Below, piece by piece: positions 2,555 through 57,052 of a stretch of 64,000 nucleotides of DNA. This stretch comes from a virus (Duplodnaviria > Caudoviricetes). The notes beneath the pieces were generated by a model. The model was not told where the DNA came from and did not search any database. It saw only the letters and a program-made list of their open reading frames with translations. Location: the IMG/VR virus record IMGVR_UViG_3300049988_000124, positions 128,001-192,000 of that record; one strand, given 5' to 3'. Position 1 is the first letter of the stretch; each line of letters opens with the position of its first letter. The position numbers and the translations under genes were made by a program.

Positions 2555-3315
2555 GACAGGGGAGTTCCTTCTGGTTCTTCGTGAAGGTGGGCGGGAAGAC
2601 CACGCAGGATGTTCTCGAAGGGCTGCGTCTCATCGACCTGCCACCGAAGAGCCGAGGTCATGCCCTGGTCACGGAAGTAGGAGCCGTTGATACGCGCAAT
2701 CGTCGAGGTGGGTGCCTGCGAGACACTGTTCAGTGCCACCATCTTGAATGGTTTGGTCTGATCAGTCAGACGGTACTGGATGGAGATCTTGTCACGGTCC
2801 CTGGACAAGTGAGCAATGATCCCCTCGAACACGGATGCGGACACACCGATACCCTGGCCAGTTAGCTCACGCGCATGAGCGAACAAGCGTAGCATGTCTT
2901 GGTACTGAAAGAAATAGGGTACCTTACCTTGCGTCACGAACTCAGACCAGAGAACGTAGACGATGTGTGGATCCTGAATAACCCGGTAGGACGTCATGAA
3001 CACATCACCTTCTTTCAGGTGCAACACCAGATACTCGATGTTGTTGTAGGTCATGCGTCCCATGTCGGAAGGGACGATCGTGAACGAGGCCAGGAGGTTC
3101 AAACCAACATGGTACTTGTTATCAAAGATCATGTCCATGACGCCGGGCGTCGTGACCGTGTCACCGATCGTCAAGGCATCATAGGCCTGGAACTTCAAGG
3201 GGATACGCAACTCCAGTGACTGACCAGTAAAGACCAGTGACTGGTTAGCCTCATCCTTCTTGAAGTAGGGTGTCGTAGTCGATAACGTTTGTAGTTTTTC
3301 TGGGTAGGGGCTCAT
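2551..3315 (-). CDS. Conserved jumbo-phage-type protein, possibly virion
   Basis: 254 aa in virion gene cluster; ATGA overlap with downstream gene; C-terminal ARINGSYF..GMTSAL resembles a remembered jumbo-phage motif. Confidence 0.5.
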   Translation of the reverse strand: MSPYPEKLQTLSTTTPYFKKDEANQSLVFTGQSLELRIPLKFQAYDALTIGDTVTTPGVMDMIFDNKYHVGLNLLASFTIVPSDMGRMTYNNIEYLVLHLKEGDVFMTSYRVIQDPHIVYVLWSEFVTQGKVPYFFQYQDMLRLFAHARELTGQGIGVSASVFEGIIAHLSRDRDKISIQYRLTDQTKPFKMVALNSVSQAPTSTIARINGSYFRDQGMTSALRWQVDETQPFENILRGLPAHLHEEPEGTPLS

Positions 3316-3550
3316 AGGACAAACCTTTGATAATCACTGATGGTATTTGATACTCATCAGGATAAGCGTAGCAGCTGACGTTAAATCCTTGATCCTCTAA
3401 CGATTCAATTAGATCATCGAGTGAGTCAAAGGACAGTGACCCTTCAACTTCGACGCAGAATCGGTGGATTTGATTTAACTCGACCATGTCGGCACGAATC
3501 TGTTTTGCTAGGTTGAAATCAACGACGTTGGAAGGCTGATCGTTTTCCAT
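3251..3550 (-). CDS. Hypothetical acidic protein
   Basis: 99 aa; AGGA upstream; same strand as cluster. Confidence 0.55.
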   Translation of the reverse strand: MENDQPSNVVDFNLAKQIRADMVELNQIHRFCVEVEGSLSFDSLDDLIESLEDQGFNVSCYAYPDEYQIPSVIIKGLSYEPLPRKTTNVIDYDTLLQEG

Positions 3551-3598
3551 GAACCAGTTTCCTGAACAAGTGTGTAAAACCGTAACAGTTATTCTTGG

Positions 3599-4959: not shown

Positions 4960-6654
4960 TTAGATAAATGTACCAACCTTGACATTGGTCGGGCAACCGT
5001 AGAGAACGTTCTTCACCGACGCATTGACGATGTTGAGGAACTCTACGATCACGACGGCATCCTTGTAGTTACCCGTCGTGTCACCGATGATGTTGAAGGC
5101 GTCCTTGTAGTTGGTCACCGGAATCGGTGCACTAACGAGCTGAGCGCCTGTCAAGACATCACGCACCACGAAGTGAGTCGGCACCTGCGGGAGGAGCGAG
5201 ACTTCCGGATCGTAGGGCGGGGTTGCTTGCGTATAAAACGAGTTCAGGAACGATGACAGATTCCCAAAGATCGAGCTCGGCACGAAATACTGCTTCTTGG
5301 CGGTATCGTAGTGCAGCGCAGGCCTGCGGGCTGTCGGAATGTCCTGCCCCAGAATGTAGGGCGAGCTGATTGCATCCTTGATCGTCCAGCGAACCAGACC
5401 ATTAGGAGCCCCGAACTGAATCACGATACCTTGCTGGTAGAGCGTGGTGACCGGATACGCAACAGGATCCACCGCGTTCATGTCAACGCCGATCGCGTAG
5501 ACCTGCTGTACCCCGAAGTAGGACGAGTCCGTCGTCAAGTTACCAACCGTGATCGTCACGAACGGCGTTACATCAATGTGGGTGCGACCATCGGCGAAGT
5601 AGAGCCAGTAGCGCATGATGTAGCGAGCAAGCGTTGAGTTATAGGTCGGGATGGGCAGGATCTTGTTGGTAACAGCAAAGTCATTGGGAATGACCGTCAC
5701 TGGTACATCGATTGAGATCATTGAACCCGTAGCATCACCCAGACCAGGGGCAATCGCTTCACTATCGGAGCGGTAGTATTTCACCGTCACGATCTGCTTC
5801 AGTCCAGCAAAAGCTGAGATGAAGTCGTCCTGACCATAAAGGATACACTTGGTACCATCAATGGTGGTAGCAGACGTGGAGCCATCATCGTAGACCACCG
5901 TGGCGGTCAAGCCGAGGGAGGCGAAGTCCTGCTTCTCGTAGACGAAGAAGGTACCATTGGCGAGCTGCTGGTGACCCGAGATCGTCATGCCGACGATGGT
6001 GGGCGCGTAGAGCACGTCCTCGTTGATGACCTGGGACTCAGTGGCAAAGAGAAGCGCTGAGAAGACCTCAGAACCATCCTCACTAAAGACCTTGACCTGG
6101 ACTTCCTCGTTGTGAGCGAGGGTAACGTTGACGTGACTGCGCGGCAGCCACCAGCTCGTGCGGCTACTATCGAGCGGGGCAAGCGGGATCATCTGGGAGA
6201 TGAGCATGCCCGTTGAGTCGTAATATTCCGAGATCACTGTAGCATCAGCGGTCCCAGGGTATCTGGTCAAGGTGTAGAAACGAGGAGACTTACCGATCAC
6301 GACGCACTTGGAGTCAGGGGTCACCGGGTAGGGCATACCCCTGCTATCCACGAACAAGCGAAGCGTGGTAGCACCGTAGTCCAGGATCGAGACAACGTTG
6401 TTGTTGTCTTTGGAGAACGTCACAGCCTCGTAGGTCGGGTAGAAGTTAACTTCATTCACCGAAGTGACCCGAAGGAGTGTTCCATCGGTGTCACTAACGA
6501 GTGAGTCCACAGCTGGAACGATCTTGGCACCGAGATAAGCGGCGTAGGTCGGATCATTCCACATCGGATCGTAGATCATGTTGCGTGCATAGACGCCCGG
6601 TGCCTGAGGCTTCAGGAGTGCCACCGGGGGCAGAATGGGATTGGGTGTTGTCAT
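4960..6654 (-). CDS. Virion structural protein, phiKZ gp26-like
   Basis: 564 aa, beta-rich; size and position match gp26 in the gp26-27-28 / sheath-tube block; TAATG overlap. Confidence 0.6.
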   Translation of the reverse strand: MTTPNPILPPVALLKPQAPGVYARNMIYDPMWNDPTYAAYLGAKIVPAVDSLVSDTDGTLLRVTSVNEVNFYPTYEAVTFSKDNNNVVSILDYGATTLRLFVDSRGMPYPVTPDSKCVVIGKSPRFYTLTRYPGTADATVISEYYDSTGMLISQMIPLAPLDSSRTSWWLPRSHVNVTLAHNEEVQVKVFSEDGSEVFSALLFATESQVINEDVLYAPTIVGMTISGHQQLANGTFFVYEKQDFASLGLTATVVYDDGSTSATTIDGTKCILYGQDDFISAFAGLKQIVTVKYYRSDSEAIAPGLGDATGSMISIDVPVTVIPNDFAVTNKILPIPTYNSTLARYIMRYWLYFADGRTHIDVTPFVTITVGNLTTDSSYFGVQQVYAIGVDMNAVDPVAYPVTTLYQQGIVIQFGAPNGLVRWTIKDAISSPYILGQDIPTARRPALHYDTAKKQYFVPSSIFGNLSSFLNSFYTQATPPYDPEVSLLPQVPTHFVVRDVLTGAQLVSAPIPVTNYKDAFNIIGDTTGNYKDAVVIVEFLNIVNASVKNVLYGCPTNVKVGTFI

Positions 6655-9281
6655 TATACCAGAACCTCACTAATGGCCAGCTGTGCAGGAAGAAGCGTCA
6701 GCGAGATAAGCCGTTGTACCAATACCATTTGCGTGGCATTTGCCCCGGTGAGATTGGCGTAATGCGCCGCCAGCGTCACGAAGCGACGATCAAGAAGCGG
6801 GTTAGCCCGACCCAAGATCACATCTCGCTCGAGAAGGAGCTTGTAACCATCTAACTGCTTCAAGAACGCATCATCCTTGGCCTCATCAATCAGAACCAGT
6901 GTTCCATCAGCCACGTCTCGCACGATTCGGGCAAGGTAGGGACTATAGAGCGTGTACTGATCCGTGATGGTCACGAGCGCTGGGTAGACAGGCTTGGTGA
7001 GACGCAGGACCCGCGTGATACGCGTCCGCAGATTCTCCTCACTCACCGGACTGATCGTTGACAAGATCTTACCAACACCGTAGGGAACCGTCCACTCTAG
7101 AAGATAGGGTGAGCCATCCTTCAGGTTAGTCTGGGAGATCAGCGTGGTTCCATTCTCGGTGACCTTCTCAACGAGCTTACCGCGCACGAAAGCGCGACCA
7201 CAAGACGCACTCCAGGCCATCGGGGGTAGATCCCGGTGAAGCTTGTTCTGGATGGCGTAGCCCTTGTCAATCGAGACCGGCTTATCACCGTGAACGAGAA
7301 CTTCTAGAACATTGCCGCTACCGGCAAGATCCAGATACTCCTGATTGCTCACCTGCAAGATCTGCTGGAGCACATCACCATTGTCGCCGAGCACTGGCGT
7401 ACAGCTGTAATCGATATCCTCGATCAAGCGGTAACCATTGGTGTAGATCTCGATGATCTCAGAGCCAACAAGTGGGATGACCTGATTGTTGATGTCCTTC
7501 ATCTCGAGCGGCAGCACGATTGGCTGCTTAGCCTGGATCATGGCATCGAGCTCTACTACTTGCGTAGTCAGACCACAGATCGGCACCAGGTAGAACGCAT
7601 TGTTGTAGTGCGAGGTACTCACCTTGAAGGTAGAGGTGCCATTGCTGTTCTGCGTCACTCGGTAGTCAGCGGGGCTTACTGGAATTGTCCGGTATCCCTT
7701 GGTAGTGCTTCCACCAACAATGGTCTTGGGCGTGTCGTAGGGAACGACCTTGACTAAGCGGTAGTCATCGTGGGGTACCGTGATCGTCGGAACACTAAGG
7801 GTCGGGTTATAGGGGATAGCAGCGTTGCTACCGTCCTCAGTGATGTAGACCCCGATGCGGGTACCATGAGCAATGAAGCTGCCTGCCTTAAAGCCGAGCT
7901 TGACGCCACCACCACAATCCGTCAGACCAACGAAGTGGTGCGGAACTTTCCGGCCATCAGCGTAGACGATAACCTGACACGGAAAGTCAATGAGCCGAGC
8001 AGGCTTCGAGATCGTGACCTCACCACCTTTGTAGGTGTAGTAATGCATCGTCTCAGCCAGCGTGGAGGCAACGTTGTAATAGCCCATGGCATCAGTGTAG
8101 CGCTTGGCCAGGTTGGTGTCACCCAGATGATCGAAGTGGTAGAGAAGATCCAGGAACGCGGACTTCTCGAGGAACGATGCCTTCCACTCAGTGATCTGAT
8201 TCGCTGACATCCCAACGAGCTGCCGCTTGATCTCGGCATCACTCAAGGTGTAGAGATCCTTGATGTGATTGGTCTCATCCTGGAGACGCTGCGGATCTGT
8301 TGGGAAGCGCACGTAGAGACGCGCACTAACGCCCGTAGACCCCAGTGAGTTCTGGAAGACCTGGAGGTTGTTGCGACCGACCGAGAAGTCATTGTGGGTG
8401 ATGGACTCAACCGCGTGATCATCGATCTGATGACCATAGACACCGCGCCCAGTTGCTGGATCAAAGACCACCAGGGTCAAGGTATCGTTGGTGATCGTGA
8501 CGTTGTTGGGGTTGAGGGCCTTGGGGATGTGAAGGACCTCGCGGTACTCCTTGTAGCGCTCGCTGTAATAGCCCGTCACATTGTCATCGATCGCAAGCTC
8601 ACAGTAACCAGCAATGTCCGGATCACACGTGATCTGAACGATGTTACCAGGAGTAAGCGTTGGGTAACGATCAGGCGTGTACGTCCAGCCGTTGATGAAC
8701 AGGATGGTTCCTGCTGGATATTGCGCTTTAGCAGCAGCGATAGCCGCTGCAACATTAGCCGGTGACTGTGCTCCAGTTCCCACGGTCATCAGCTGCGTCA
8801 CCGTCGGCGTCAACCGCGTGGTGTCGTAGTAGACCGTCATGTAGAGCTTGGGGTAGGACTCACCGATGCAACCCGAGGTGAGATTGCGATCGATCGCCAC
8901 CAAGACGGTACCGCGCAGTGGATCAAAGCGTAGCCACACACCCCCTTCGGGGATCTTGCGACCGGAGGATGCATAGGTGGAGATCTGGACGTGGTCCTCG
9001 GCAAGGACGCTACTGTCCTTCACCCACTCGTGTGAGGGAAGAGAGGTAAACCGACCAAAAGCGTGAACAGCTACCCGGTACACTGCATAGACCTTGTCGG
9101 TGGTGGGAAGACCCACCACCGAATGGCCAACAGGAATGGAACCAGTTTGAAGCCGCTCAGCCGCCTTTGCTAAAGGAAAGTTTGCCCGACCATGATCATT
9201 GGTAGCGTTCCACACCTGATGGAAGTAAACGCTACCCAGATGATTCATCATCGCGCGAGACAGGGCTGACGGTAGTCTCAT
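6654..9281 (-). CDS. Virion structural protein, phiKZ gp27-like
   Basis: 875 aa; synteny and size. Confidence 0.6.
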   Translation of the reverse strand: MRLPSALSRAMMNHLGSVYFHQVWNATNDHGRANFPLAKAAERLQTGSIPVGHSVVGLPTTDKVYAVYRVAVHAFGRFTSLPSHEWVKDSSVLAEDHVQISTYASSGRKIPEGGVWLRFDPLRGTVLVAIDRNLTSGCIGESYPKLYMTVYYDTTRLTPTVTQLMTVGTGAQSPANVAAAIAAAKAQYPAGTILFINGWTYTPDRYPTLTPGNIVQITCDPDIAGYCELAIDDNVTGYYSERYKEYREVLHIPKALNPNNVTITNDTLTLVVFDPATGRGVYGHQIDDHAVESITHNDFSVGRNNLQVFQNSLGSTGVSARLYVRFPTDPQRLQDETNHIKDLYTLSDAEIKRQLVGMSANQITEWKASFLEKSAFLDLLYHFDHLGDTNLAKRYTDAMGYYNVASTLAETMHYYTYKGGEVTISKPARLIDFPCQVIVYADGRKVPHHFVGLTDCGGGVKLGFKAGSFIAHGTRIGVYITEDGSNAAIPYNPTLSVPTITVPHDDYRLVKVVPYDTPKTIVGGSTTKGYRTIPVSPADYRVTQNSNGTSTFKVSTSHYNNAFYLVPICGLTTQVVELDAMIQAKQPIVLPLEMKDINNQVIPLVGSEIIEIYTNGYRLIEDIDYSCTPVLGDNGDVLQQILQVSNQEYLDLAGSGNVLEVLVHGDKPVSIDKGYAIQNKLHRDLPPMAWSASCGRAFVRGKLVEKVTENGTTLISQTNLKDGSPYLLEWTVPYGVGKILSTISPVSEENLRTRITRVLRLTKPVYPALVTITDQYTLYSPYLARIVRDVADGTLVLIDEAKDDAFLKQLDGYKLLLERDVILGRANPLLDRRFVTLAAHYANLTGANATQMVLVQRLISLTLLPAQLAISEVLV

Positions 9282-27548: not shown

Positions 27549-27563
27549 CACTTGAGTAATATA
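27549..27563 (-). promoter_or_regulatory. Early-type promoter TATATTAC-TCAA-GTG
   Basis: Exact phiKZ early consensus TATATTAC about 55 nt upstream of the operon with the nvRNAP subunit. Confidence 0.65.
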
Positions 27564-33523: not shown

Positions 33524-33538
33524 CACCTTAGTAATATA
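33524..33538 (-). promoter_or_regulatory. Early-type promoter TATATTAC-TAAG-GTG
   Basis: Exact consensus, same spacing to GTG as 27549 copy. Confidence 0.6.
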
Positions 33539-40326: not shown

Positions 40327-40962
40327 TTACGCGCGCCGGTGGGCGACACCGACACCCAGGAGGGCACCGAAGCCGAGCCAGACGGCGTTGTTCTTCACCC
40401 AGTTGACGGTGTCGGTGCAGTTCTGCGAGAAGGTCTCGTAGATGCCCTGACGCTCGGCGGTCTTGGCCGCCTTCATCTCGAGCTTGGCGAGAAGCTCGGG
40501 TGCGAGCTCGTCCGGGTTGACCTGGCCGACGAAGTTGAGCTGCGAGAAGAAGCCGCCGCGCGTGAAGCCGTCGGGCCGGTAGTAGGAACCGTCCTGATCA
40601 GCGAAGCGGTAGCCGTCAGCGTAGAATCGCGAGCTCTCCGGCACGGTGCCGACGATCTTGCAGATCTGGTCGAGCCCGTTCAGATAGTAGCCGCCGATCT
40701 CGACGACTGCGTAGGGCGACTCGGGCGCGGGCTCCATGAAGGTGCACACGATGTCGTGAGCGTTCTTCTGCTCGACGGGCAGATCGCCCATCGTGCCGAC
40801 GACGCTGCCGTCCTCGCGGTAGTTGATGCCGTTGTCACCACGAAAACGGAAGCCGAGGTGATGCTCGGTCTCGTCCTCACCAAAGGCGTGGACCATGATG
40901 ACCTTGGCACCGACGGTGTCGACGAAGATGGTGCCGAGGGCGAGCTTGAGAGTATCGGACAT
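40327..40962 (-). CDS. Protein with two copies of the 60-aa G..Y..DG beta domain plus C-terminal anchor
   Basis: FRGDNGINYREDG and FADQDGSYYRPDG; C-terminal WLGFGALLGVGVA. Confidence 0.7.
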   Translation of the reverse strand: MSDTLKLALGTIFVDTVGAKVIMVHAFGEDETEHHLGFRFRGDNGINYREDGSVVGTMGDLPVEQKNAHDIVCTFMEPAPESPYAVVEIGGYYLNGLDQICKIVGTVPESSRFYADGYRFADQDGSYYRPDGFTRGGFFSQLNFVGQVNPDELAPELLAKLEMKAAKTAERQGIYETFSQNCTDTVNWVKNNAVWLGFGALLGVGVAHRRA

Positions 40963-40997
40963 GAGAGTATTCCTTTTTTCACTGATTGATGGGTGAT

Positions 40998-41031
40998 ACA
41001 TGACCTGAGGGCAAATGCCCTCAGGTCATGT
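40998..41031 (-). terminator. Hairpin
   Basis: Perfect 15-bp stem ACATGACCTGAGGGC-AAAT-GCCCTCAGGTCATGT. Confidence 0.7.
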
Positions 41032-41039
41032 GATGGGGT

Positions 41040-48072: not shown

Positions 48073-48243
48073 TTACTTGTTGGGGTTGAACCAGTAGCCA
48101 CCGTTCAGACGCCGAATTTCACGGCAATCATCTGCGACAGCGATACCCACCACCGCGACCAACATGGCCTCTCCGTACCGACCAAAGACGATCAGGAGGA
48201 GCACGAGGGCAGCGAGGATGATGAAGGGGAGAATGTCTTTCAT
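48073..48243 (-). CDS. Small membrane protein (56 aa)
   Basis: MKDILPFIILAALVLLLIVFGRYGEAMLVAVVGIAV. Confidence 0.6.
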   Translation of the reverse strand: MKDILPFIILAALVLLLIVFGRYGEAMLVAVVGIAVADDCREIRRLNGGYWFNPNK

Positions 48244-48285: not shown

Positions 48286-48318
48286 AGTAGAGAGAGCCCA
48301 TGACGGGCTCTCTCTACT
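48286..48318 (-). terminator. Hairpin
   Basis: Perfect 14-bp stem AGTAGAGAGAGCCC-ATGAC-GGGCTCTCTCTACT. Confidence 0.7.
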
Positions 48319-48328
48319 GGTTAAGCGG

Positions 48329-48673
48329 TTAGGCGGGGACGGCGAGGTTGTCGTTGAGGACGAGCTCGCGCTGGGCGGTTGCGCCCTGGTTGACGTCACG
48401 CGCATCGATCCAGATACGGGTACGATGCATGTTGCTGATGCGGTTGCACATCAGGCGCAAGATGACCAGGCGACCGGAGACGACCGCGCCGTGATTGTCC
48501 TGCTTCTTGACCGGCACCCAGGCCAGGATCACGAAGGAACGGCTCCACCGACGGGTAGTGACCCCGGGCTGACGTCCGAGGACGATGCCGTAGTTGGTGA
48601 GGGGCGAGTACTGGGCGAGGAACCAGAAGGCGCGAAGGAGAACGCGGGCGAGCTGCTGAAGATAGATGTCCAT
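48329..48673 (-). CDS. Basic hypothetical protein
   Basis: 114 aa; C/G-ending codons; GGAAAGG RBS; overlapped 145 nt by the acyltransferase tail. Confidence 0.55.
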   Translation of the reverse strand: MDIYLQQLARVLLRAFWFLAQYSPLTNYGIVLGRQPGVTTRRWSRSFVILAWVPVKKQDNHGAVVSGRLVILRLMCNRISNMHRTRIWIDARDVNQGATAQRELVLNDNLAVPA

Positions 48674-49719
48674 GGGAATGCCTTTCCGTTAAAGAGCCAC
48701 AGAGTAAGTGCAAACTTACTCACGATGAACTCGTGGACCATCCACGAGATCGAGAACGAACCAACCGTAAGAATTGTGAAAAGAAACACGGGATTGGTAA
48801 CTTGGGTACTCAGGAGATAGAATAAGATCCCGAGCACGGGAACGTGAAACAGGTACACCGAGAAGCCGGACTGGCTGAGGCGGCGTACCAGATCGTTATT
48901 CTCTTGAACCCTCAAGGCTGTTGCCAGCACCGTAAAGCTCATGAGAACAGCGACCAGGGACATGATGAATGTCCGCAAGACCTTAAAGGCCGCACTGGCA
49001 CTGGGATCAGCGACCATATAGTAGACCGCGTTATACCAGCACATCGCCCCTAGAAGCGCGAAGACTCCGACCCAAGCCCACCGCGTGGAGGACATCCACG
49101 CACATAGTCCTTCTTGTCGTGAGACGAAGAACCCGGCTAGGTAGAATACCGCGTAATAAGGGGTAAGGACCGCGATCGTCGGTAAGATCTGCTCCCACTG
49201 GAGGAGATAGAGGATACCCCTGGACAATTGCGCGTTGCCGGTGGCCAACACCACGACGCCGAGCAAGAAGTACTTCGGGTAGGCCTTGATCTTAGCGTTG
49301 ATCCACCCACTCAATCCCGATTCATCGAGCATGTAGCCGAGCGGCGTGATAATCGATAGGACCAGGAGAAACCAGAGATGGTAAGGATTGGCAAATGTGA
49401 AAGAGCCACCTTTGACATCAATGGTGAAGGGTAGCACGAAGAGCCAGACGGCGAACGTCGGCACCAAGAGCTGTTCCAGTCGACGACCAATCGAGTACCG
49501 ACCGGCCACTTGGAGTCTTGCCATAAGAAACCCACTGATCGCGAAGAATGCTTCCATGCGAAACAGGTGGCTGGCGAAGAGGAAGTTGTCTGCCCATTGT
49601 AGAGGGTGGGCAGGGCTAGAAATATAGGATACGCTGTGAATGAGGGGACCTGCTAGAAGCAGGAAAGCGCGCCACGCATCGACCCCCAATATTCGATGCG
49701 GACGCGTCGCGATGTCCAT
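48529..49719 (-). CDS. Membrane acyltransferase family 3 (AT3), OpgC/MdoC-like
   Basis: Multi-TM; D..RA, H, FRMEAFFAISGF, HLWFLLVL, SVYLFH and C-terminal LFNGK motifs typical of OpgC-type AT3; AAGGAG RBS. Confidence 0.8.
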   Translation of the reverse strand: MDIATRPHRILGVDAWRAFLLLAGPLIHSVSYISSPAHPLQWADNFLFASHLFRMEAFFAISGFLMARLQVAGRYSIGRRLEQLLVPTFAVWLFVLPFTIDVKGGSFTFANPYHLWFLLVLSIITPLGYMLDESGLSGWINAKIKAYPKYFLLGVVVLATGNAQLSRGILYLLQWEQILPTIAVLTPYYAVFYLAGFFVSRQEGLCAWMSSTRWAWVGVFALLGAMCWYNAVYYMVADPSASAAFKVLRTFIMSLVAVLMSFTVLATALRVQENNDLVRRLSQSGFSVYLFHVPVLGILFYLLSTQVTNPVFLFTILTVGSFSISWMVHEFIVSKFALTLWLFNGKAFPWTSIFSSSPAFSFAPSGSSPSTRPSPTTASSSDVSPGSLPVGGAVPS

Positions 49720-49749
49720 TAAGGACTCCTTGTTTCCTAAAAGAGATAG

Positions 49750-49755
49750 GTCATA
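49750..49755 (-). promoter_or_regulatory. Late-type promoter motif TATGAC before the acyltransferase
   Basis: About 31 nt before ATG 49719, same spacing as for virion genes. Confidence 0.5.
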
Positions 49756-55924: not shown

Positions 55925-57052
55925 ATGTCTGACGTTGCTCAGGAAATCTCTACCGACTACGATATCGACAGCCAGCCCGTTCGTGACATCGAAGACCCGC
56001 TGGGTGAGTGCGATCAGGAGATGATTGAGATCGAGTCGCTCGACCAGGAGATCGACCAGCTGATGCAGGTAACGATCGCGATCGAGAATTACGGCATGGA
56101 TCCCAGCACCTTCGGTGTCCTGAAGGCAACCAATCTTCTCTCGGGTACCTCACTCGACGTTCTGGGGATGGAGAACTTTGCTAACCAGGATGCGGACAAG
56201 CTAGAGTCCGCTATGGCCACTGAGTCACTTATTGAGAAGATCAAGGAGAAGGCTGCTGCCTGGGCTGCTAAGATCATCGGTTTCACCAAGTCCTCGCTCA
56301 ACGCTGTTCTGGGAATGCTGACCAAGATCAAGGATCAGATTGTCGAGAAGGGCACAGCGCTCGTCACGGCAACCTGGGACGCAGCGAAGTCCGGTGCTCG
56401 CGTAGTCAAGGCTCACCCGTACAAGACAGTTATTGCAGCGATCGGTACAGCGGCTGCCATCATGGGCGTGGTTGCATTGATGGCTGCTCCTGGTACTTAC
56501 GCCAGTGTTGACTCACTGAGGGCATTCGCCGTTAAGCTGCGCGATGCGGTCGCTAACATCAAGCCTCCCTTCAACAAGGTAAAGGTTGAGATGGTGGATG
56601 GTAAGTTCTTCAACTCCGCAATCGTAGTCGACGTCGCCAATGGTGTTGAAACCGTGACATCGACGACCGCGATTACTACGACGTATAGTCAGGTTGAGCT
56701 TGGTTGGACACAGTCGGCCGTGAAGCTCGCGCTTGCTCAGTTCAGTAAGCTCTGGAATACCACCAAAGCAGCGCTGACTGCAATTCCTGGTAAGGTCGTA
56801 GAGATCGCCAAGAAGATCAACAACATGGGTGGTGGTGATGCAGCTACCAGTGTTCAGAACGTGGTGGCTGAGAAGACTGGCTCACCACTCACCGGTTGGG
56901 CTGCTAACAAGGTTGTTGACAGGATCTACACCACGCTACTCTTCAGCATCGTGGGTGTTGTTTACTCACTCTTGAAGGACGTGGTCCTGAAGGCATATCG
57001 CAGTGTTCAGGAAACCTTTGGTGCGCTAAAGGCTGAACCCAAGACGACATAA
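55925..57052 (+). CDS. Putative head/ejection protein, paralog of 1550..2554
   Basis: Acidic propeptide-like N-terminus; LGME-N and MATE-S motifs; EKAAAWAAKII; KAHPYKTV. Confidence 0.65.
   Translation: MSDVAQEISTDYDIDSQPVRDIEDPLGECDQEMIEIESLDQEIDQLMQVTIAIENYGMDPSTFGVLKATNLLSGTSLDVLGMENFANQDADKLESAMATESLIEKIKEKAAAWAAKIIGFTKSSLNAVLGMLTKIKDQIVEKGTALVTATWDAAKSGARVVKAHPYKTVIAAIGTAAAIMGVVALMAAPGTYASVDSLRAFAVKLRDAVANIKPPFNKVKVEMVDGKFFNSAIVVDVANGVETVTSTTAITTTYSQVELGWTQSAVKLALAQFSKLWNTTKAALTAIPGKVVEIAKKINNMGGGDAATSVQNVVAEKTGSPLTGWAANKVVDRIYTTLLFSIVGVVYSLLKDVVLKAYRSVQETFGALKAEPKTT

Follow-up and report, generated by a model that had tools for sequence, protein, structure and literature searches.

A stand-alone AT3 acyltransferase and a small partner ORF as a candidate surface-modification cassette in a phiKZ-like jumbo phage

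Introduction

Phage-borne AT3 acyltransferases are mainly known as lysogenic-conversion genes of temperate phages. Here we describe an AT3 gene that lies in a 64,000-nt stretch of viral DNA (the window, bases 128001–192000 of the single 307,821-bp virus record IMGVR_UViG_3300049988_000124, 52% GC) and that, together with a small partner open reading frame (ORF), seems to form a two-gene cassette in a phiKZ-like lytic jumbo phage. An earlier note on this DNA had described the gene as an OpgC-like AT3 acyltransferase with a late promoter.

Genes of the AT3 family are classic in temperate phages (PMC9558356). Oac of phage Sf6 and the serotype-converting O-antigen acetylases are, like the protein studied here, phage-encoded stand-alone AT3 enzymes presumed to modify a host surface glycan and to alter adsorption, and by its annotation Sf6 oac is also a unit with its own promoter and terminator. 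However, Sf6 oac adjoins an integrase gene and is expressed from the prophage, whereas the present gene belongs to a phiKZ-like phage without an integrase and stands behind a promoter-like motif of the phage RNA polymerase type, and the two proteins share no significant sequence similarity (BLASTP E 0.07).

Among bacterial enzymes, OpgC (MdoC) of Escherichia coli is likewise a stand-alone AT3 protein of about the same size (~350–385 aa), and its gene adjoins opgGH. ExoH (succinyl) and ExoZ (acetyl) are stand-alone AT3 enzymes encoded inside the Wzx/Wzy-type succinoglycan cluster of Sinorhizobium meliloti (PMC9558356), a setting like that of the bacterial relatives of the phage AT3. No Sinorhizobium record appeared when the phage AT3 and E. 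coli OpgC were compared by tblastn with 72,556 plasmid records, and any relation of the phage AT3 to ExoH and ExoZ, which are not part of our tree, is therefore taken to be distant.

Modification of host surface glycans by jumbo phages against rival phages has been proposed before (Iyer et al. 2021, PMC7824862). The cyanophage lipopolysaccharide (LPS) and capsule clusters treated there resemble the present case, in that large lytic or pseudolysogenic phages carry host-like genes proposed to change the cell surface against superinfection. Those clusters comprise cytoplasmic sugar-nucleotide enzymes and glycosyltransferases, and the section that treats them names no membrane AT3, whereas here one enzyme stands with a small partner.

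Results

An intact AT3 gene

The gene and the elements that define it are as follows.

48529..49719, minus strand: AT3 (PF01757) acyltransferase coding sequence, 396 aa, supported by Pfam, the homologue alignment and an AlphaFold2 (AF2) model
48679-49719, minus strand: AT3 catalytic core, residues 1-347, part of the AT3 ORF
49726..49731, minus strand: AT3 Shine-Dalgarno sequence, AAGGAG, 7 nt upstream of the start codon, read from the sequence
49750..49755, minus strand: TATGAC(C), candidate promoter for the non-virion RNA polymerase (middle or late type), 30 nt before the AT3 ATG, from positional enrichment

The product matched Pfam PF01757 (Acyl_transf_3) with 83 bits (cut-off 31, E 2.7e-23), residues 11–328 covering profile positions 2–324 of 326, which bears out the family assignment made in the earlier note. 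A six-frame search of the genome recovered the same match and found no other such gene in the 307,821 bp, and the ORF also matched PHROG 3333, ‘O-acetyltransferase’ (1e-8). The public gene call starts at Met55 and yields 342 aa, cutting off the first transmembrane helix (TM1) and the catalytic His. Because homologues align from residue 8 onward, the TM1 motif included, the ATG at 49719 is the correct start. A GGA/AAGGA pattern like the one in front of this ATG precedes nearly all genes of the surrounding tract.

In AT3 proteins the R-X10-H motif of TM helix 1 is absolutely conserved (Arg14/His25 in OafB), and an RXXR motif on the cytoplasmic face of TM helix 3 is highly conserved, its second Arg touching the 3'-phosphate of coenzyme A (CoA) in OafB (PMC9833829). 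The first hallmark is intact here as R17-AFLLLAGPLI-H28. Across 32 members of the clade to which the protein belongs, R17-X10-H28, F53-R54, R80, H114, H292 and G345 are conserved, H28 being invariant and R17 occurring in at least 90%. At the second motif the protein has R80-L-E-Q83 (RLEQ), against RVER in E. coli OpgC; R80 is invariant and Q83 is found in at least 90% of the same 32 members. In this alignment RLEQ is a variant of the whole clade and no lesion of the phage copy.

The AF2 model, built on 32 relatives, is all-helical (predicted local distance difference test 91.5, predicted TM-score 0.91) and has the predicted ten-helix transmembrane acyltransferase (TmAT) fold. A sequence search of the PDB gave no match; by structure, the nearest solved protein was human HGSNAT, weakly (E 0.04, TM-score 0.5), a likeness that fits the published transmembrane acyltransferase superfamily (PMC12423673). 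The GC content of the gene and its GC at third codon positions equal those of the rest of the genome, which argues for a settled gene and against recent acquisition, and since the stretch recurs without any difference in a second leaf-metagenome run, the locus is no assembly artefact. The phage gene is thus real and intact; its enzyme family is known, and its setting is unusual.

Relation to OpgC and other AT3 enzymes

The four motifs on which the earlier note had based its OpgC comparison were all present, at positions equivalent to those of E. coli OpgC: FRM..FF.ISG at residue 53 (58 in OpgC), HLWFLLVL at 114 (139), YL.H at 289 (316) and, near the C-terminus, LF.GK at 342 (368). The R-X10-H motif is likewise in the equivalent place in OpgC, and none of the four motifs was found in E. 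coli WecH or Sf6 Oac. The MdoC/OpgC equivalog NF003014 was the only informative NCBIfam match (72.4 bits vs a cut-off of 338, E 3.9e-20, positions 12–374 of 386), the sole other row being at chance level (0.12). When the AT3 model was compared with Swiss-Prot folds, the top 30 matches were all OpgC (TM-score 0.76–0.79 over the full length), and the E. coli protein shares the predicted fold over its whole length with a TM-score of 0.78.

Overall identity to E. coli OpgC is 25%, and BLAST similarity is significant over the N-terminal 140 residues only. In two trees, the 34-member clade of the phage AT3 stood apart from the clade of E. coli OpgC, with Shimodaira–Hasegawa-like approximate likelihood ratio (SH-aLRT) supports of 88/94 and 100/100 that come from quick tree searches; Sf6 Oac and WecH fell far outside it. 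Because the profile match reaches 72 bits against 338, identity is 25% and the clade is separate, the phage AT3 is, on the sequence evidence, not an OpgC orthologue, and its clade is a hitherto undescribed sister clade of OpgC/MdoC. The description as OpgC-like thus holds in so far as OpgC/MdoC are the closest characterised relatives, but does not extend to orthology; similarly, phylogeny set the protein apart from Sf6 Oac and WecH without placing it among the E. coli OpgC group. Unlike OpgC, moreover, this AT3 is phage-borne, is coupled to a small partner ORF, carries a 47-residue tail, and has cellular relatives in Wzy-type clusters and not next to opgGH. A claim that phage copies of the AT3 were acquired independently was considered and dropped, as the tree does not settle placement within the clade.

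The partner ORF, the C-terminal tail and the closing hairpin

Downstream of the AT3 core three further elements were recognised.

48329..48673, minus strand: small partner ORF P0002, 114 aa, with homologous ORFs directly after AT3 in other phage sequences and GGAAAGG 8 nt before its ATG
48529..48678, minus strand: Ser/Pro-rich tail at the C-terminal end of the AT3 ORF, past the point where the family usually stops and overlapping the partner ORF by 145 nt
48286..48318, minus strand: perfect 14-bp hairpin with a 5-nt loop, candidate terminator, 11 nt after the partner ORF stop

Homologues of the partner ORF lie directly 3' of AT3 in three other phage or phage-like sequences (L004, L014 and L017, described below), and a 67%-identical copy, with the N-terminal 40 residues conserved, is present in the short ENA contig L035. 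The conserved core is W43-x3-F47-V48 ... V70 ... R78 ... R86-x-W88. The family is very small, with only five members in 5.8 billion clusters; Pfam, PHROG and NCBIfam gave no match and the protein atlas no usable one. The public gene call begins at Val48 and comprises 67 aa, so that the conserved Trp and Phe are lost. Complex prediction for the AT3 core with the small protein gave a score of 0.00, the fold of the partner being uncertain, and speaks neither for nor against a complex.

Relatives of the AT3 end 3–8 residues past the FNGK that closes the core at residue 346, and in the other phages the stop codon of AT3 and the start codon of the partner share an ATGA or a TAATG. At the present junction, CCATGG, residue 350 is encoded by TGG in place of TGA, and the AT3 frame runs on for 47 codons. 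Both the TGG and the downstream stop also occur in L035 (~80–87% identical) and in a ~96% identical variant of run X3, which indicates that the extension is old and tolerated. We infer that the tail is a by-product, disordered and located in the cytoplasm. The possibility that it stems from a frameshift or from faulty assembly was considered and rejected, the second sample being identical and both diverged relatives keeping the TGG and the stop. Within the 145-nt overlap, L035 shows 25 differences spread evenly over both frames, a pattern that does not tell which frame is constrained.

The hairpin folds as RNA with −31.8 kcal/mol (z −5.6), none of 200 shuffles being as good, and L035 retains it in full (100%) between flanks that differ. 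It probably closes the two-gene unit as a terminator, with a weak U-tract (AUUUCG). Upstream of AT3 codon 3, the ~96% variant of X3 bears no relation to the sequence of this phage, which hints at a cassette boundary near that codon. The arrangement, with promoter-like TATGAC, two ORFs and terminator-like hairpin inside a co-directional gene run, is a moron-type layout, and the features of the cassette that are new here are the conserved partner ORF, the lost stop overlap and the closing hairpin.

Directly after the hairpin lies a 56-aa ORF (window 48073–48243, minus strand) with two hydrophobic stretches, likely a small membrane protein. The ~96% variant of X3 retains this ORF, whose loose end there gives the same LLLIVFGRY on translation, and L035 retains the ribosome-binding region.

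Bacterial and phage relatives

An exhaustive HMMER search of 1.8 billion representatives yielded 253 relatives of the AT3, the best with 35–37% identity. Among 50,697 phage genomes, tblastn detected no relative of the AT3 or of P0017, IMG/VR scans with the AT3 protein and with an alignment found nothing, and neither did a scan of GTDB genomes; a metagenome scan added one new locus only, a distant one. Genomic contexts were read for eleven clade members (twelve places).

The bacterial contexts of P0012, P0022 and P0028 contain Wzz/tyrosine kinase, Poly_export, Wzy_C, several glycosyltransferases, Glf and a Wzx-type flippase. P0005 has a hexapeptide acetyltransferase in its vicinity, and a second AT3 also occurs in bacterial clusters. 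The chain-length regulator of the L007 cluster finds its best match in Sphingomonadaceae plasmids, several of them from leaves. Neither opgG nor opgH was seen beside AT3 clade members in the contexts read, in contrast to E. coli opgC; the automatic JGI name of several members is ‘glucan biosynthesis protein C’. Since the readable bacterial contexts are Wzx/Wzy-type clusters and not opgGH, a surface polysaccharide is the likelier acceptor, and the periplasmic glucans named in the earlier note are less likely.

On the phage side, L004 (JGI 3300056892, 282,563 bp) is a kin jumbo phage by tblastx, many flanking genes having 40–75% protein identity to this phage, and L014 (270,626 bp, same sample) is a syntenic kin. 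Both carry the AT3 and small-ORF pair at another locus, between homologues of the 76.4-kb and 79.3-kb genes of the present genome, and the AT3 region of L004 corresponds to 70–87 kb of that genome. L017 is a 17.8-kb phage-like fragment with the same pair; it also encodes a Tad3 (anti-Thoeris) family protein at 6229–6975 and a DnaJ-domain protein. L003 (ENA, 545,211 bp) has a 34%-identical AT3 amid phage-like content (HNH endonucleases, an N6/N4 methylase and rows of small unknown ORFs), and no homologue of the small partner ORF was found in it. A further clade context is a prophage-like stretch in a Sphingomonas assembly, with Ogr/Delta, GapR and HTH repressor-type genes.

The phage and the candidate promoter

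The genome encodes a homologue of the phiKZ virion RNA polymerase subunit gp149 that matches 277 jumbo-phage records, and by this marker it is that of a phiKZ-like jumbo phage. Neither a tyrosine integrase (PF00589) nor a serine recombinase/resolvase (PF00239) was found in it. The earlier description of a lytic jumbo phage accords with both results.

Genome-wide, TATGAC occurs at 19 sites 12–50 nt upstream of called starts, whereas the 180 hexamers that share its base composition have a median of 3 and the next best has 10, and TATGAC(C) is enriched about 6-fold upstream of genes. As many as 46 of the 104 copies lie in the non-coding 14.6% of the genome. The modal distance to the start is 20–39 nt and the commonest continuation is ACC, and the AT3 site fits both. 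The motif also precedes the gp149 homologue, the endolysin gene and an RNase H gene, and for most other genes behind it no function is known; PHROG annotation of the 17 other TATGAC genes was mostly uninformative.

In phiKZ, the late consensus is TATG, which the non-virion polymerase needs and whose G is the transcription start; TATG is not sufficient, two middle promoters carry it as well, and the genes for the virion polymerase belong to the middle class (PMC4666361). The genes behind TATGAC are therefore most likely dependent on the non-virion polymerase and of a middle or late class. Of the late promoter in the earlier note, the enriched motif stands, shared as it is with a virion gene and the endolysin gene, while the word ‘late’ is carried solely by the phiKZ analogy.

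The AT3 tract is a co-directional run of small minus-strand genes. An early-type promoter core, TATATTAC, has 24 copies in the genome, 18 of them upstream of genes, typically in the form TCA-N13/14-...-TATATTAC(C/T)-N3-(G/T)TGA, with (G/T)TG usually four bases after the core. Its copies in the window are:

27556-27563, minus strand: early-type core TATATTAC, sequence match
33531-33538, minus strand: early-type core TATATTAC, sequence match

The 39–55 kb tract around AT3 holds only degenerate versions, those upstream of the gene lying at ~53.3, 54.4, 55.2 and perhaps 51.2 kb, and no convincing terminator was found between these sites and AT3. The same tract contains, at window 40963–41039 (minus strand), upstream of ORF 40327–40962, a long perfect intergenic hairpin TGACCTGAGGGCA...TGCCCTCAGGTCA that is probably a transcription stop. 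An ORF at 55925–57052 that had earlier been read as a ‘head protein’ found no PHROG or phage match.

Discussion

In this study, we considered that the locus is a two-gene AT3 cassette of a phiKZ-like lytic jumbo phage that acylates a host surface polysaccharide, a reading to which we give an even chance; the integrity of the gene, its family and clade, the contexts, the conservation of the cassette and the enrichment of the motif are observed, and substrate, acyl donor, timing and benefit are the inferred parts. According to the proposed model, the cassette would be ordered as a phage-type TATGAC promoter, a stand-alone AT3 O-acyltransferase of the TmAT fold, the partner ORF and a strong hairpin. 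Following the established AT3 mechanism, cytoplasmic acyl-CoA would supply an acyl group that passes through the membrane pore of the enzyme and is joined as an ester to a sugar at the outer face of the inner membrane. This sugar would most likely belong to a host surface polysaccharide, such as exopolysaccharide, capsule or O-antigen-like repeat units, so that the cell surface would be altered in the middle or late phase of infection. This might block the adsorption of competing phages or save progeny that would otherwise be wasted on infected cells and debris. The acyl donor may be acetyl or succinyl, and by analogy the likeness to OpgC could mean succinyl.

Several points weigh against this proposal. 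The substrate, the donor and the acyl-transfer activity itself are putative, and the closest characterised proteins in both sequence and fold are succinyltransferases of osmoregulated periplasmic glucans. RLEQ stands where the family has RXXR and E. coli OpgC has RVER, and the tree gives the protein no firm position inside its own clade. As to timing, TATG is insufficient for a late promoter in phiKZ (PMC4666361), no TATGAC precedes the AT3 gene in the kin phages L004 and L014, and because no terminator was seen upstream, earlier expression of AT3 by read-through is possible. Only three (3–4) bacterial contexts were long enough to read, and a Sphingomonadaceae host is suggested by the relatives.

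It is unlikely, in our estimate, that the gene encodes a true functional OpgC which succinylates the periplasmic glucans of the host and thereby shifts periplasmic charge or envelope stress signalling. Such a function would agree with MdoC as the only informative NCBIfam match, with the all-OpgC list of best Swiss-Prot folds, with the four motifs common to E. coli OpgC and missing from the two acetyltransferases, and with the JGI names given to several clade members. The score far below the equivalog cut-off, the low identity with BLAST significance confined to the N-terminal part, the separate and well-supported clade, and RLEQ against RVER speak against it, however, and the clade contexts read lack opgG and opgH, the bacterial ones being of Wzy type. 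A wall-directed role, in which O-acylation of peptidoglycan in the manner of OatA or PatA would shield the wall for a time from muramidases and thereby adjust the timing of lysis or protect against rival lysins, seems very improbable. AT3 proteins do include peptidoglycan O-acetyltransferases (PMC9558356), and the candidate promoter motif is common to AT3 and the phage endolysin gene, but OatA-type enzymes have a fused SGNH domain that is absent from this AT3, no similarity to such proteins was detectable, OpgC being the best characterised relative, and the cellular clade members sit in polysaccharide and not in cell-wall clusters.

The pair could also be a passenger with little or no role, shuffled among related phages and maintained by drift, or impaired in part through the loss of the stop and RXXQ. 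The family is indeed rare (253 of 1.8 billion representatives, none in the 50,697 phage genomes or IMG/VR), kin phages carry the AT3 at different loci, the ~96% identical variant has another upstream flank, and the TGG in place of a stop adds a 47-codon low-complexity tail. We nevertheless regard this as quite unlikely, for all clade-invariant residues are intact, RXXQ is the norm of the clade including members in bacterial biosynthetic clusters, the composition of the gene matches the genome, at least four diverged phage lineages, as well as the ~80–87% identical relative, maintain open frames for both AT3 and partner, and a good Shine-Dalgarno sequence and a promoter-like motif at modal spacing stand in front of the gene.

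If the surface-polysaccharide reading is correct, an AT3 in an obligately lytic phiKZ-like phage behind a phage-polymerase-type motif would imply that the surface is re-decorated within a single infection cycle. The AT3 clade, with RXXQ for RXXR, is common to Sphingomonadaceae-like polysaccharide clusters and several very large phages, and the partner ORF offers a handle on how stand-alone AT3s without an SGNH domain complete the transfer to the acceptor. A broader version, which we hold to be rather unlikely, is that a mobile, phage-specific cassette of AT3 and partner, read by phage RNA polymerase, is used by lytic jumbo phages that form a nucleus, and by other phages whose alphaproteobacterial hosts live on leaves, to re-acylate host exopolysaccharide in the middle or late phase, for receptor masking on behalf of the progeny or for rival exclusion, and that the W-x3-FV...R-x-W protein is a new partner or regulator of stand-alone AT3s. 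The finding is incremental and brings no new principle, and it corrects two public gene calls, those of the AT3 (Met55 start) and of the partner (Val48 start).

Three further genes were noted in L036 (genome 232090–235084, outside the window; 591–1745, 2194–2598 and 3178–3585, all minus strand). They encode a glutathionylspermidine-synthase-like protein (PF03738, 432 bits), a DUF350 membrane protein and a 135-aa hexapeptide-repeat transferase, and the repeat region of the last is 40–50% identical to hexapeptide acetyltransferases found near AT3 relatives in bacterial polysaccharide clusters.

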